A stretch of DNA of 64,000 nucleotides, taken from the NCBI GenBank assembly GCA_951406725.2, contig OX597830.1:21514001-21578000 (forward strand), given 5' to 3'. Made by a program: the position numbers and the translations under genes. The notes under the pieces were generated by a model that saw only the letters and a program-made list of their open reading frames with translations, was not told the DNA's origin and did no database searches. This DNA is from Octopus vulgaris. Its lineage: Eukaryota. Positions 1,481 through 48,648 of this stretch are shown piece by piece. Each line of letters begins with the position of its first letter. Positions within the stretch are counted from its first letter, which is position 1.

Positions 1481-2397
1481 TTTATCGTTATCGTTTGATA
1501 CTCTTTTTAAGTCATACTACCAACCGTCTTCTCTGTATTCTTAGAAAAATAATAAAATTACGTAAGAGAATCTTGGCTAAATCTTATGACGGAGCCTCAT
1601 TCAATAGAGTAAGAGTTACATAAAATATACACTGGCATCTTGCGTTTTCAGGAGAGCATTTACTATCTCAGACACACACAACCGACTACGAATAAATGCA
1701 AAAAAAATAATAAATGGAAAAATAAAAAGATAAAAGGAAAAGAAAACAAAAACAATGTAATTTAACTTCTCATATTTAATCAATGTTAACACCCTATCTG
1801 AAAAAAAATTCCAGCATCTTGCACTTCTGCCCCTAGGACACAATTATAATAAAATGTGTTTTAAAAAAACGAGAACTCATTCCAGATAAACTATTCAACA
1901 TTTAAAAGAAAAAAACACTTTGCTAACATGGCGCTGTCATCTATTAATAATAATTTTGCATTTAGTCACAGGGGCAACATTTTTTTGTACGTTTTTGTTT
2001 GTAGGCGGGTTGTTAGGAAGGAGTTATTCAATGTTATCGACCCCAGTATGCCTTTTACTGCATTCTTTGGACTAAGTTGTCTCTGCAAGGCATTAGACAT
2101 TTGTTAAAATGTTGATGTTTTGGAAAGACTATATTTTGTTGTCAGTATGACCCAAAACCATCGGGTGATTGCTTATTATTTAGTTGTGATACTTAAAGTA
2201 CAGAGAAGGGAACTACATGCAAAGAAAAGACTCAATATGAATTTTAAAAACAAAAATATAGTAAAAAGGAGCTCAAACTGTGTTTGTATAAATATGGATT
2301 GTTATTAATACCAAGATATTCATATTACACTTTGAAGTTTCGCCATAACGTGGTTCATCAGGTCATGAGGGTTAAGTTCTATATTTCCACCCTTAAT

Positions 2398-2597
2398 TAT
2401 TGGTTTCAAATTTTGGCACAAGAGCAGTAATTTCGGTGGAGGGGATGAGTCGATTATTGATATTTATTTTATCGACTCCGAAAGGATGAAAGGCAAAGTC
2501 TATCTCAGCGGAATTTGAACTCGGAACGTGAAGACGGATGAAATGCCCGTTAGCATCTTGCGCGGCGTGCTAACAATTCTGCCAGCTCACCGCCTTC
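2398..2597 (-). mobile_element. SINE family B (tRNA head plus Nin/Deu-like central domain)
   Basis: Minus strand aaggcggtgagctggcagaat..gagttcaaattccg..ctttgcctttcatcctttcggagtcgataaaataa; more than ten copies in the window. Confidence 0.85.
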
Positions 2598-3319
2598 ATT
2601 CCACCCTTTATATATTAAGATGATATATATATGTGTGTGTATATATATATATATATATATATATATATATATATATATATATATATATATATATATATAT
2701 ATATATATATATATATATATATATATATATATATATATATATATATTTATTTATTAATTTATTTATCTATTTATTTATTTATTTGATTGATTTTAATTCA
2801 ATGGCTATATTTCGAAATTTTAGAGACTGGTTGTCATTGACAACCCGTCTCTAATTATTCGTGTTATGGAGTAGTGTATTGTCACGGATTGAATGTGTGT
2901 GTGTGTGTGTGTGTGTGTGTGTGTGTGTATTTAACTATTTAAAATAAGATTTGACATATTTTAAACTACTATAAGAAGAAAATTTACGCTATTTTGTTTG
3001 TATATGCAATTTTTATGAAAAGAGAAAATATATTTTTATTGAAAGATCGCTCTACATTTTATAGTTTTATGAATATTTCCAAATGTTTCAATAATTTAAG
3101 ATTCAGTGAGTGGAACATTGTCGTATTTTCGTTTATGTGGGCGAGAAGATATTAATTCTGTGTTTATTTTGTGCGTTTTTTTTTTATTGTACTTTAAAAT
3201 CAAGATTTAATGTAGATAAGACTGTTATTTTATAATAAGTGAAGCTATTTATATATGTATATATGTATGTATGTACGTCGATGCGTATGTATGAATGCAT
3301 ACATACATGCATGTATTCT

Positions 3320-3832
3320 TGTTCTGTTCTGTATTTAATTATTTAAACTCTTCCCCTGAAGAAGGAGCTGGTTTCTAACAAAGACAGAAAGCTCCATCAT
3401 TGAAATGTAGATAACGAAAACGATGTCATATGTCTTGCATATTTTTACTGTTTCACTTACATATTGTATTTGTAATGTGCGAGTCAGTTGGTTGATTTCT
3501 TTTCTTGAAAAGCCAAGCTTATCCGCACTGTCAATTAGGCATTTACTCACAAAACGAAAAACACCAGATATTATTCGTGCAGTATATTTGCCACTTAAAT
3601 GTGGCTAACGCTTAAGGGTTGATGCTACTGTAGCTTGTAGCTCCAGGAAGACATCTCCTCCAGCTGGCTATTGACACACTCACTGTGCCTTATCAGTATT
3701 AGCAAAGGGAAGTCATCGTTCCCATCTCCAACCTGACGTAATACACACGGACCTGAGTTTCTGGATAATTGACCCGTCATCAGCGTTATCAGCGACTACT
3801 GTTTATACCTTGCTCGGAGATTTATTATTACC
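3320..3832 (-). mobile_element. Bipartite RLE-LINE derivative: hammerhead-bearing leader fused to ORF C-terminus and 3' UTR
   Basis: Minus peptide VSKCLIDSADKLGFSRKEINQLTRTLQIQYVSETVKICKT is homologous to 11090-11310; 3580-3830 is homologous to 10500-10906. Confidence 0.7.
3744..3788 (-). ncRNA. Type I hammerhead ribozyme candidate
   Basis: acg-CTGATGA-c-GGGT-caatt-ATCC-a-GAAAC-tcag-GTC-cgt: complete core, stems I-III, GUC site. Confidence 0.7.
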
Positions 3833-3910
3833 AATTATTATTGCTATAAATGTAAATTTCTCATCTGGATATAGAAGCTAAATGTTTCGAAGCAGTTGTC
3901 CATAGTTACT

Positions 3911-4200
3911 CTATGTATGTATGTATGTATGTATGTATGTATGTATGTATGTATGTATGTATGTATGTATGTATGTATGTATGTATGTATGTATGTGTGT
4001 GTGTGTATGTATGTATGTATGTGTGTGTGTATGTATGTATGTATGTATGTATGTATGTATGTATGTATGTATGTATGTATGTGTGTATGTATGTATGTAT
4101 GTATGTATGTATGTATGTGTGTGTGTGTATATATGTGTGTGTGTGTATGTATGTATGTATGTATGTATGTATGCGTTTGTAGATATGTATGTATATGTTT
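3911..4200. repeat. (TATG)n/(TG)n microsatellite, representative of the many simple repeats across the window
   Basis: Direct reading; similar TA, CA, GATA, TAC, TAA, GAT and GGT tracts occupy much of the window. Confidence 0.98.
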
Positions 4201-47073: not shown

Positions 47074-47176
47074 ATATATATATATATATATATATATATA
47101 TATATATATATATATATATATATATATGTGTGTGTGTGTGTGTGTGTGTGTGTGTGTGTGTGTGTGTATTATGTAT

Positions 47177-47560
47177 AGGCACAGGAGTGGCTGTGTAGTA
47201 AGTAGCTTGTTTACGAACCACATGGTTCTGGGTTCAGTCCCACTGCGTGGCACCGTGGGCAAGTGTCTTCTACTATAGCCTCGGGCTGGCCAAAGCCTTG
47301 TGAGTGGATTTGATAGACGGAAACTGAAAGAATCCCGTCATATATATATATATGCTTATGTGTCTGTGTTTGTCCCCCCAACACCGCTTGACAACCGATG
47401 GTGGTGTGTTTATGTCCCCGTAACTTAGCGGTTCGGCAAAAGAAACCGATAGAATAAGTACTAGGCTTACAAATACTAAGTCCTGGGGTTGATTTGTTCG
47501 ACTAAAGGCGGTGTTCCACCATGGCCGCAGTCAAATGATTGAAACGAATAAAAGAATAAA
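47177..47560 (+). mobile_element. SINE family A, full length, short internal tract
   Basis: Both halves separated by only ~25 nt of TA/TG. Confidence 0.92.
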
Positions 47561-47894
47561 ATATATATATATATATATATATATATATATATATATATAT
47601 ATATATATATATATATATATATTTAAAGGGGTTGAAAGCGAAATCGTCCTTTAATTGGAATAGTTTCCAAAAGATTCCTAACGTTGTTTCTTCATACTTT
47701 ACTTTGAATTTACTGGTTTAAATTAGTGTAGATATGAAAATTTATATAAGTATGTTAAGTATATGATTTAGCTTATAAAACGAAGTTCGACAAATTCAAT
47801 CATATTTTTCGTAAATGGAGGAAATTAGATGTTAATATGGATTGAAATTATTTTTATTCTTGTAGCCATACGATCGTTTCATACAAAAAGACAA

Positions 47895-48310
47895 TAAACT
47901 CATTTTAAGAATGCGGCCATAATTCTTGCCTTCATTTCATCTTTGGTGTTACAAGGAGTTTCAGTGATCTGTCGCTCAAGTACACCCCACACATCAAGGG
48001 GGTTGCAGTCTGGTGAGTCAGGTGGCCATATGTTAGGAGTGAGTGGTTTATCCTGCTGGTGTGGCATGGTGCAGAGACCTGTTGCCATACATAGGGTCTT
48101 CCAGTAGCCAACCTCTTGACCCAGGGCAGCATTACCTCCTCCAGGCACTTGATGTAGGCCTTGCCTTCGTATTGAGTCTGAGACCGTATGGGTAGAAGAA
48201 TTGGGGCACAACGTCGCCATCACTAGTGATCGCTCCAAACACCATGATGTTGACCGGATGTTTGATTTTAATCACTCTCGGTACATGTTTTGGGGACACG
48301 GCAGATGGAA
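47895..48310 (-). pseudogene. Tc1/mariner-superfamily transposase fragment (maT/DD37D-like)
   Basis: KHPVNIMVFGAITSDG, LPWVKRLATGRPYVWQQVSAPCHTSR and WPPDSPDCNPLD-VWGVLER; frameshifted. Confidence 0.85.
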
Positions 48311-48607
48311 TAGAAATTACGCCATACGTAACCTAATATAAGTTTGTTTCTGAAGTAACTTTTCAAACAAGTACCTCGTTTCTTGAGGTACTTATTTAGA
48401 AGGTCACCTGAGGAAACAAATCTGCACCTAAACTGTATGACAATTAATTGTCTGTTTGCCTGTGTGGTATGATGTGTGTGTGTGTGTGTGTGTATGTGTG
48501 TGTGTGTGTATGTGAGTGTGTGTGTGTAGGCCAGAGTTGTATTCGGTTATTTTCCTTTTTAATATGTTTAAGTTTCTCGTATACTGAACATAAAGTAGAA
48601 CAAATCA

Positions 48608-48648
48608 TGATCTGATGACACCTATTGAGGTAGAAACACGTGTCCTCT
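48608..48648 (+). ncRNA. Hammerhead ribozyme candidate (stem I decayed)
   Basis: CTGATGA-c-ACCT-attg-AGGT-a-GAAAC-acgt-GTC; palindromic ACACGTGT. Confidence 0.55.

Follow-up and report, generated by a model that had tools for sequence, protein, structure and literature searches.

How many of the hammerhead-like motifs that crowd one stretch of Octopus vulgaris DNA are genuine folds, which elements do they belong to, and could scattered copies act on one another? We analyzed a 64,000-nt window (GCA_951406725.2, contig OX597830.1, positions 21,514,001 to 21,578,000, forward strand); all coordinates below refer to this window. A first-pass annotation had listed 16 motifs, all of which are present, each listed coordinate being the low end of its motif.

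Hammerhead motifs and their chance expectation

Microsatellites were masked (25.8% of the window) and the remaining 156 segments, totaling 46,715 nt, were compared with dinucleotide-shuffled sequence, the control that the first-pass annotation had proposed. The strict descriptor required CTGANGA and a stem II of at least 3 Watson-Crick pairs, with one bulge or closing mismatch tolerated, followed by GAA, a palindrome starting at A15.1, and H. The masked window contains four matches (29683+, 30407-, 41783+ and 48612+), which represent four unrelated families. Shuffled sequences gave a mean of 0.02 and a maximum of 1, and four matches were reached in 0/150 shuffles. With the YTGANRA core used originally, there were 6 matches compared to 0.26 in shuffles, and again none of the 150 reached the real count. 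The looser descriptors were defined after the motifs had already been seen. One such scan accepted C3-G8 or U3-A8 cores, scored stem II, required GAAA and left stem III optional, and it recovered 13 exact-core matches versus 3.15 in shuffles. A perfect palindrome plus H was found in eight of these 13 (0.28 by chance, 0/40 shuffles), and six of the eight also had at least 3 of 4 stem I pairs (0.0 by chance, 0/40 shuffles). Stem II was closed by G10.1-C11.1 in 6/13 loose matches compared to 0.32 by chance.

We considered whether repeats and a permissive descriptor could have inflated a set of chance matches. The shuffles predict that about 3 of the 13 loose matches arise by chance, and when one core mismatch is tolerated the count of core plus stem II shows no excess (51 versus 43.5, with 4/40 shuffles reaching 51). 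The palindrome-bearing count at this same tolerance is nevertheless in excess, at 14 versus 3.0, and once a palindrome is required the shuffles fall far below the real counts. The origin of the strict matches in four different families and the repair of stems by majority letters (below) also argue against coincidence, and the chance reading is refuted for the motif set as a whole. It may still apply to single sites. The listed motifs at 2325 and 26296 (cores at 2361 and 26341) have weak stems and no palindrome, and two extra scan matches, at 33269(-) and 50661(-), were rejected as being without family support and inside the chance count.

The motif set comprises about a dozen real minimal type I hammerhead folds, mostly in damaged copies. 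The core C3UGANG8A9...G12AAA15.1...U16.1 H17, or its U3-A8 form, is exact in 10 of the 14 copies examined (10650, 3783, 41783, 30407, 40339, 40391, 29683, 48612, 42182 and 41140) and changed in four (18986, 41418, 33503 and 8922). Stems I and II are in order at 10650, 30407, 40339 and 33503, as well as in the family C majority letters, whereas most of the other single copies have weak or interrupted stems. Indeed, a first scan that required unbroken stems yielded only 3 sites, 2 of them among the annotated motifs, indicating that most copies are damaged. An unpaired base between positions 9 and 10.1 occurs in families C (majority letters), E and F, and is absent from 10650 and family D. We rejected decay as the source of the TTGANAA cores, which correspond to the published U3-A8 covariant; both core forms are found in family A. 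Rfam models for hammerheads are built on canonical forms. An Rfam scan of the window, dominated by microsatellite matches to miRNA models, contained no hammerhead among the 150 of 450 matches listed, and no hammerhead match appeared at E up to 5 when 41640-42296 and 10493-10950 were scanned alone.

After subtraction of chance matches, the window carries one exact-core motif per 5-6 kb, so the density originally estimated (roughly one per 4-5 kb) is about right here. The proposed eight or so unrelated families become about nine (A to I), and some of the listed motifs belong together: 3744 and 10644 are members of one family, 40305 and 40388 lie on opposite arms of a single insertion, and 41378 and 41778 are likewise paired. 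The palindromes given as AATATT and AACGTT were out of register, A15.1-U16.1 being ATAT and ACGT, followed by U17. Stem-loop III had been described as self-complementary in most motifs; it is imperfect in the window copies at 3744, 41068 and 42177.

Table 1. Hammerhead-bearing elements and related features in the window.
Feature	Position	Strand	Description
Doubtful motif	2325..2368	-	exact core 2361; stem II weak; palindrome and stem I absent
Family A, copy 2	3581..3829	-	75% identity over 183 nt to copy 1
Family D, 3' fragment	8148..8273	-	without hammerhead
Family F, second copy	8918..8953	+	damaged core; 85% over 71 nt
Family D, copy	9892..10111	-	truncated at GAAA; 3' extension present
Family A, copy 1	10503..10905	+	retrozyme-like unit: 359 nt plus 44-nt terminal direct repeat
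Family A, hammerhead	10644..10689	+	best preserved; 6-bp stem I; U3-A8 core at 10650
Family C, solo copy	18867..19038	-	tail present, head absent; after (AAC)n(AAT)n; G12 to A
Doubtful motif	26296..26348	-	exact core 26341; stem II weak; palindrome and stem I absent
Family B, hammerhead-like motif	29681..29716	+	intact core; AGCGCT + A17; weak stems
Family D, head-to-head inverted insertion	30135..30595		between (TA)n runs; arms 96% over 166 nt
Family F, hammerhead	33498..33535	+	5-bp stem I; unpaired A; G10.1-C11.1; ACGT + A17
Family E, copy	37966..38085	-	truncated inside stem II
Family E, head-to-head inverted insertion	40203..40521		between (TA)n and (TG)n; arms 91% over 151 nt
Family I, hammerhead-like motif	41068..41144	-	intact core; 4-bp stem I; long stem II
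Family C, inverted arm	41324..41467	-	5'-truncated, without tail; 89% over 145 nt
Family C, tRNA-like head	41656..41717	+	fused to body; itself a high-copy repeat; A/B-box pattern
Family C, body	41731..41911	+	181 nt, very high copy; 3' tail 41878-41911
Family H, hammerhead	42178..42257	+	long stem II; within repeat ~42040-42290
Family G, hammerhead	48609..48647	+	intact core; ACACGTGT + C17; both stem closings mismatched

Insertion anatomy and Penelope-like elements

Very likely, in our view, the motifs sit at the 3' ends (pseudo-LTRs) of Penelope-like elements (PLEs) and of non-autonomous elements derived from them, about nine families in all. The insertions would survive as short, mostly damaged remnants and are probably inactive in place. 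Three inverted insertions, from families C, D and E, carry a 3' extension on one arm only (34 nt in C, ~85 nt in D and at least 6 nt in E). The family D minus arm contains a hammerhead at 30410-30347 (core 30407, 8-bp stem II, ACGATCGT, GUA) and the ~85 nt of additional 3' sequence, which is also found in the 9892-10111 copy; the plus arm is truncated inside stem II. Both arms of the family E insertion carry hammerheads, at 40342-40307 (-) and 40388-40424 (+), with a U3-A8 core, one unpaired U and ATAT + U17. The inverted family C arm has its hammerhead at 41423-41378, with A15.1 changed to G, and joins the tRNA-like head through an AAT/GAT run at 41459-41652. Eleven of 15 element ends lie at the edge of a masked microsatellite, compared to 11% of unmasked positions within 15 nt of one; because the ends were positioned by eye, several of them at mask borders, this association is only suggestive.

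Craig et al. 2021 (bioRxiv 10.1101/2021.04.23.441226) describe similar insertion units for EN+ PLEs, in which a 5'-truncated copy lies inverted at the 5' end and only one end carries a tail, of 30-40 bp; these units also show a microsatellite bias. The family D tail is longer than this range, and the Naiads that are the subject of that work are described there without hammerheads, unlike the elements in our window. The motifs themselves resemble the minimal hammerheads reported in metazoan PLE pseudo-LTRs, a pattern found in many animal genomes (Cervera and de la Pena 2014, PMC4209133). The shared features are type I topology, a short stem I, in part of the copies here an unpaired base between 9 and 10.1 and G10.1-C11.1, a palindromic 15.2-16.2 or small palindromic helix III, the U3-A8 variant, many families per genome that are mostly single truncated copies, and opposite-strand pairs 100-700 bp apart. 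Covariation between U3-A8 and C3-G8 cores has been reported for Schistosoma PLEs. In contrast to the published elements, the window is without a full PLE, and its density of one motif per 5-6 kb, taken from a single window, is higher than the genome counts given in PMC4209133 (~3,300 in S. mansoni and 9,000 in X. tropicalis).

No Pfam match to RVT_1 or GIY-YIG was found in the 279 unmasked open frames of at least 48 aa in the window, so membership rests on anatomy. A PLE frame is expected to be absent from short 3' remnants; assignment to one of the PLE clades (Penelope/Poseidon, Neptune or Nematis) requires an RT. Same-strand tandem hammerhead pairs were found in no family within the window, the nearest same-strand family pairs lying 22-25 kb apart (C and F) or involving a truncated copy (E).

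These features are consistent with a model in which an RT-endonuclease of the PLE type would make its nick in AT-rich or microsatellite sequence and reverse transcription would begin a short way behind the hammerhead, as Frangieh 2024 and Craig 2021 lead us to suppose. With such a starting point, we propose, even heavily 5'-truncated copies would keep the motif. A second, inverted truncated copy would often be laid head to head with the first and give a tail on one arm, as seen in the three insertions. Where a source element is transcribed as tandem copies, two hammerheads on that transcript would be able to swap strands, join via the palindrome and cut the RNA; such cutting is established in other PLEs and would be expected here. 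The dispersed copies in the window are without such a partner and have decayed since.

It is already known that many animal genomes harbor numerous and diverse minimal hammerheads of PLE origin, most of them solitary. The window is a dense, many-family example of this pattern, apparently undescribed for this genome; we found no prior report for the lineage in the literature covered, most subscription papers and Repbase being outside its scope. The original suggestion of a large, diverse ribozyme-bearing retroelement complement is upheld by the nine or so families, the PLE-type inverted insertions and one-sided tails, and further by one retrozyme-like unit and the paired majority letters of family C. 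Of the remaining families, B, G and I are single copies in the window, and the family I palindrome is one change short of perfect. The family F hammerhead at 33498-33535 has a U at core position 6. The family H repeat has a read depth of 30,000-130,000 versus 180-1,900 alongside, and G42249>A is the majority letter in run X15 (~60% of depth), which gives this motif a perfect 8-nt palindrome.

Retrozyme-like and SINE-like families

Alternatively, most families could exist independently of coding PLEs, as retrozymes (tandem or circular-RNA elements) or SINEs, instead of forming the ends of such elements, and the failure to find a PLE frame in the window favors this view. Family A comes closest to a retrozyme. 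Copy 1 begins ~10 nt past a (TA)n run, its terminal repeats (10503-10546 and 10862-10905) are 91% identical, and the 359-nt unit falls inside the 170-400 nt range given by Cervera 2020 (PMC7229834). Stems I and II have canonical sizes of 6 and 4 bp, with stem II closed by G10.1-C11.1, the palindrome is ACTGCAGT and the predicted cut follows C10683 (GUC). The region 10640-10860 has a fold z of -2.8, and the hairpins covary, with 4/48 predicted pairs changed on both sides between copies 1 and 2. The copy 2 hammerhead (3786-3747) has a damaged palindrome and a C3-G8 core at 3783, so the two core forms alternate within the family, and this swap provides a natural test case. Compared with non-LTR retrozymes (PMC7229834; 10.64898/2026.07.22.740005), family A is alike in unit length, stem I and II sizes, low GC, structured body and dispersed monomers. 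It is unlike them in being a monomer plus 44 nt (1.12 units of the 359-nt period) with one hammerhead and no tandem array. Tandem arrays are in fact absent throughout the window, and families C-F have the minimal stem III that is typical of PLE ends. Moreover, Li 2026 (10.64898/2026.07.22.740005) derives retrozymes from PLE ends, and thus the alternative overlaps the PLE reading. We conclude that a retrozyme or SINE identity probably holds for families A and C; as an account of most families it is rather unlikely.

For family C, the fixed 5' border and tRNA-like head speak for a SINE. The head contains a candidate Pol III A box at 41663 and a 34-nt spacer to a candidate B box, which is tRNA-like spacing by pattern match, and was not called as a tRNA by ARAGORN or Rfam. 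It is present on 1/3 family C copies in the window. Head and body have similar read depth, and their joint (41717/41731) is spanned by 35 and 22 RNA reads, which may derive from few loci; loose ends on both sides of the joint are AAT runs. Reads show two 3' ends, at 41868 and 41911.

The body carries a minimal hammerhead at 41778-41823 (+), with its core at 41783, ACGT + U17 and a predicted cut after 41818. Majority letters were taken from public sequencing runs and obtained for only 2 of the ~9 families (C and H). In 4/4 runs, the family C majority letters specify a minimal hammerhead with all stems paired: stems I and II regain 5 bp each, and both G10.1-C11.1 and the unpaired A that follows A9 are restored. 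The restoring letters, at 41790, 41792, 41808 and 41821, account for 78-99% of reads or depth. These are hallmarks described by Cervera and de la Pena in 2014, and they count in favor of the hammerhead and PLE readings.

In the schistosome SINE-like elements Sm-alpha and Sj-alpha (PMC6765202, PMC2770079), a Pol III tRNA-related promoter is likewise reported to be followed by a hammerhead, with copy numbers in the tens of thousands (S. mansoni has >38,000). Family C is unlike these elements in its minimal hammerhead (no stem III), microsatellite linker and PLE-type inverted insertion with tail, and it has no tandem copies in the window. It could be a composite, very-high-copy SINE in which a Pol III head derived from a tRNA is connected by an AAT/AAC linker to a 3' end that stems from a Penelope element and carries a minimal hammerhead. 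Such a SINE would have arisen independently of Sm-alpha, as its counterpart in a cephalopod genome with a ribozyme load of maybe hundreds of thousands of motifs. The inverted arm and one-sided 34-nt tail suggest mobilization by a PLE rather than a LINE, and we judge this composite proposal to be evenly poised. If true, PLE machinery can spread a Pol III SINE until its copy number is very high, and the many octopus SINE families without a class could be sorted quickly by hammerhead descriptors; 893/900 recently active ones are reported as unclassified. An octopus repeat library may already include family C under a PLE or SINE consensus.

A protein search with the family C frame gave no match among longer proteins, and family C motif pattern scans of metagenome and viral contigs returned 0 loci. 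We also rejected family C as the 3' UTR of the window's Dong/R4-like LINE, since no family C sequence comes after the LINE frames at 20769 and 61900. Among the open frames of the window, a single Pfam match exceeded the curated cut-off, to zf-RVT in a LINE fragment; a second scored slightly under it. A protein search with the LINE fragment found animal retroelement relatives.

Pairing in trans

Finally, the first-pass annotation raised the possibility that scattered copies with matching palindromes pair in trans. In its strongest form, dispersed copies would be working ribozymes that meet through their palindromes and cut host transcripts. Copy number is very high, family C sequence is abundant in two RNA runs (8,815 and 6,406 reads), and schistosome SINE hammerheads can cut in cis or trans in vitro according to a review. 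However, a double hammerhead must swap stem I strands as well, so a palindrome in common does not suffice. The ACGU palindrome occurs in both family C and family F, yet they have 0-1 stem I pairs between them, and in 6/6 cross-family pairs tested the active dimer lay 3.9-20.8 kcal/mol above the best predicted dimer fold. The active homodimer came within 1 kcal/mol of the best predicted dimer fold for only 2/14 copies (10650 and 30407) and was unfavored in the other 12. Four-base palindromes have calculated energies of -1.7 (ACGU) or +1.6 (AUAU) kcal/mol, and the inverted arms are predicted to form a long hairpin that ties up 19-55 nt of the hammerhead region.

The family C reads point in the same direction. 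C41815>T, which breaks the palindrome, is present in ~30% of reads, and ordinary RNA-seq, a weak test, showed neither a read-end pile-up nor a depth dip at the cut site (41818). The two RNA runs bear a different organism label from the best DNA run and read both strands equally, and therefore carry little information on strand or cleavage. Cleavage by minimal PLE hammerheads is reported to be poor even in tandem dimers (PMC4209133), and an Anolis hammerhead cut only with protein added. Based on the predictions, the reads and the lack of same-strand tandem pairs in the window, ribozyme activity of the window copies is doubtful, pairing in trans between scattered copies is unlikely, and cutting of host transcripts by such pairs is highly improbable. 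The palindromes of 4, 6 and 8 nt and the possible U6 core variant offer further natural test cases. For the 10650 copy, the active homodimer is itself the predicted dimer minimum, at -32.9 versus -23.2 kcal/mol for two monomers.

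Excess of hammerhead motifs

All 16 hammerhead motifs in the first-pass annotation were found where it had placed them, and the high density that it reported held up, with an exact-core motif roughly every 5-6 kb. Microsatellites occupy 25.8% of the window (masked), and the 46.7 kb left unmasked was compared with shuffled controls. A strict descriptor (CTGANGA, stem II, GAA, a palindrome from A15.1, H) matched four sites in four unrelated families versus 0.02 per shuffle, and none of 150 shuffles reached four. A looser scan without a stem III requirement, its settings picked after the motifs had been seen, returned 13 exact cores versus 3.15 by chance. 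Eight of the 13 carried a perfect palindrome (0.28 by chance), six a palindrome with stem I (0.0) and six a G10.1-C11.1 pair (0.32); none of 40 shuffles reached any of these counts. The bare count lost its excess once a single core mismatch was tolerated (51 vs 43.5). Only three sites passed a scan requiring unbroken stems, which points to damage in most copies. Chance may account for the motifs at 2361 and 26341. Two more exact cores with weak stem II, 33269 (-) and 50661 (-), were absent from the first list; they have no family support, lie inside the chance count and were rejected as hammerheads.

The density is near that of Sm-alpha hammerheads in S. mansoni, whose genome is about 0.4 Gb. 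Over 38,000 Sm-alpha hammerheads have been reported (PMC6765202, PMC2770079), and the density here is high relative to the counts that Cervera and de la Pena give in their 2014 paper (PMC4209133). By our tally, hammerhead-bearing pieces make up about 5% of the window, some 3 kb in all, which fits the 6.83% given for O. vulgaris Penelope-like elements (PLEs; 190 families) in PMC13282606; the supplement text searched does not mention hammerheads. No reports of octopus hammerheads or PLE-driven tRNA SINEs were found in a search that took in little of the subscription literature. The feature is real and is accounted for by a known class.

Families, core variants and majority letters

Copies were grouped by BLAST of the masked window.

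Coordinates of hammerhead families and associated features
Feature	Position (strand)	Remarks
Family A	10650, 3783
Family C	41783, 41418, 18986
Family D	30407	plus three truncated pieces
Family E	40339, 40391, 38085
Family F	33503, 8922
Families B, G, H, I	29683; 48612; 42182; 41140	single within the window
Inverted insertion, C	41324-41911	one-sided 3' extension, 34 nt
Inverted insertion, D	30135-30595	one-sided extension, ~85 nt, common to copy 9892-10111
Inverted insertion, E	40203-40521	one-sided extension, at least 6 nt, common to copy at 37966
Donor-like sites, E	40296-40304 (-), 40427-40435 (+), ~38058-38066 (-)	~9 nt behind predicted cut
Long stem II	D 30361-30400 (-), H 42189-42241 (+), I 41082-41133 (-)	39-53 nt
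tRNA-like head, C	41656-41717 (+), before body starting 41731	62 nt, high-copy; Pol III A- and B-box patterns
LINE 3' fragments	20769-21547 (+), 61900-62734 (+)	zinc knuckle, restriction-like endonuclease motif
Non-coding repeat	19098-19642, 21993-22550, 62836-63376	~550 nt, 90-92% alike

The AATATT and AACGTT palindromes of the first-pass annotation proved out of register: the A15.1-U16.1 segments are ATAT and ACGT, then U17, as in the minimal hammerheads that Cervera and de la Pena described in 2014 (PMC4209133). The same paper reports a U3-A8 covariant, and this is what the TTGANAA cores of families A and E represent. Family A holds both forms (C3-G8 at 3783, U3-A8 at 10650), and changes on both sides affect 4 of the 48 pairs predicted for its body, in a comparison of two sequences only. 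Family F cores have U at position 6 (33503-33509, +) or other damage (8922-8928, +). Stem II is unusually long in three families; in family D it opens with an ATG, like the ORF of the Anolis PLE (Frangieh et al. 2024, PMC11167929), but the family D frame ends after 20 codons.

Reads from four public runs were aligned to 41653-42296. Sharply bounded and present in very many copies, the family C repeat has a summed contig depth of 2-9 million versus 180-1,900 alongside, depth not being a copy number. Majority letters at 41790, 41792, 41808 and 41821 reach 78-99% across the four runs, and they turn the damaged copy at 41783 into a complete minimal hammerhead with 5-bp stem I, intact core, unpaired A, 5-bp stem II closed by G-C, ACGT and U17. 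These letters are taken from the read differences listed, and rarer core changes may exist. C41815>T, present in about 30% of family C reads, breaks the palindrome. Family H, too, is repetitive, and with its majority letter at 42249 the palindrome becomes a perfect one of 8 nt. Consensus sequences without intact cores and stems, which the first-pass annotation had named as counting against its reading, are therefore not what the majority letters give for these two families, the two checked.

Insertion anatomy and the proposed pairing in trans

Three of the pairs or single motifs in the first-pass annotation (families C, D and E) belong to head-to-head inverted insertions in which just one arm has a 3' extension; those of D and E are flanked by microsatellite runs, and reads contain two family C 3' ends (41868 and 41911). 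Craig et al. 2021 (bioRxiv 10.1101/2021.04.23.441226) describe this layout as the PLE signature: the 5' end bears an inverted copy that is itself 5'-truncated, a tail of 30-40 bp is confined to one end, and microsatellites are preferred. Frangieh et al. 2024 (PMC11167929) show that reverse transcription of the Anolis PLE begins inside its RNA, within a template that extends to 235 nt past the ORF start at the hammerhead; such an internal start would account for the survival of the motif in short remnants. In this window the 3' ends are ~50-215 nt downstream of the predicted cut. Family A departs from this anatomy: its 359-nt unit, 44-nt terminal repeat, canonical 6-bp and 4-bp stems and structured body recall non-LTR retrozymes (PMC7229834), and Li et al. 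2026 (10.64898/2026.07.22.740005) derive these from PLE ends. Against PLE membership, we found no RT or GIY-YIG remnant (Pfam, 279 unmasked frames; protein search with the family C frame), no tandem pseudo-LTRs (PLE terminal repeats) in the window, and no Rfam hammerhead match in 41640-42296 or 10493-10950 scanned alone. PLEs often have an intron close to the hammerhead. All three family E copies carry a sequence closely resembling a 5' splice donor, CAAG/GTAAGT, with GTAGGT instead in the plus arm.

In other systems, PLE hammerheads whose stem III is palindromic are inefficient and cleave as dimers, aided by tandem layout (PMC4209133). Source elements elsewhere in the genome would be transcribed in tandem, allowing a pair of hammerheads on the RNA to exchange strands and cleave it; PLE proteins would copy the 3' end of the resulting RNAs into AT-rich or microsatellite sites, where inserted copies would decay. 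The first-pass annotation had instead proposed that scattered copies with matching palindromes pair in trans. In a double-hammerhead model requiring both swapped stem I strands and paired palindromes, the active homodimer was favoured for 2 of 14 copies, 10650 (predicted -32.9 kcal/mol, the dimer minimum) and 30407 (predicted -17.2 vs -17.8 kcal/mol for the best). The other 12 homodimers were unfavoured. So were the six cross-family pairs modelled, whose active forms were predicted to lie 3.9-20.8 kcal/mol above the best fold, with 0-2 stem I pairs. Transcripts reading through inverted insertions are predicted to pair 19-55 nt of the hammerhead region with the opposite arm. RNA reads over family C are equal on both strands, with no read-end pile-up or depth dip at cut site 41818, a weak test, since the libraries were fragmented, some 6% of each run was sampled and the runs are labelled as another organism; the Anolis element likewise gave a negative result (PMC11167929). 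We consider it very improbable that dispersed copies act in trans in cells.

A candidate composite SINE and neighbouring repeats

Neither ARAGORN nor Rfam calls the tRNA-like head of family C a tRNA. Each of the four runs shows a short fixed stretch and an AAT run after the head, and an AAT/AAC run ahead of the body; 35 and 22 RNA reads span head-body joins. These observations suggest that head and body together make up a composite SINE that PLE machinery has mobilised. Alternatively, an AAT-tailed SINE may simply lie beside a PLE end that seeks AAT runs: few loci may have supplied the spanning reads, and the family C copy at 18867 has no head. A composite SINE would have a precedent in schistosome Sm-alpha, which joins a tRNA-related promoter to a hammerhead (PMC6765202, PMC2770079). 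A second tRNA-like head at 23150-23230 (-) has A and B boxes with the same 34-nt spacing.

No host gene was found in the window. The only notable scores in the Pfam scan of 279 unmasked frames were zinc-binding domains (zf-RVT) of two LINE fragments, which adjoin AAT runs, are 50-65% identical to RT-bearing animal retroelement proteins (protein search) and are presumably Dong/R4-like. The ~550-nt repeat lies near these fragments and AAT runs. A 123-aa frame at 47903-48271 (-) without a Pfam match contains a WPPDSPD motif reminiscent of Tc1/mariner transposases. A very abundant SINE-like family, reminiscent of octopus SINEs, lies mostly beside TA runs (6470-6820, 10100-10345, 24590-24760, 26380-26560, 46850-47060 and 56400-56600, among others).
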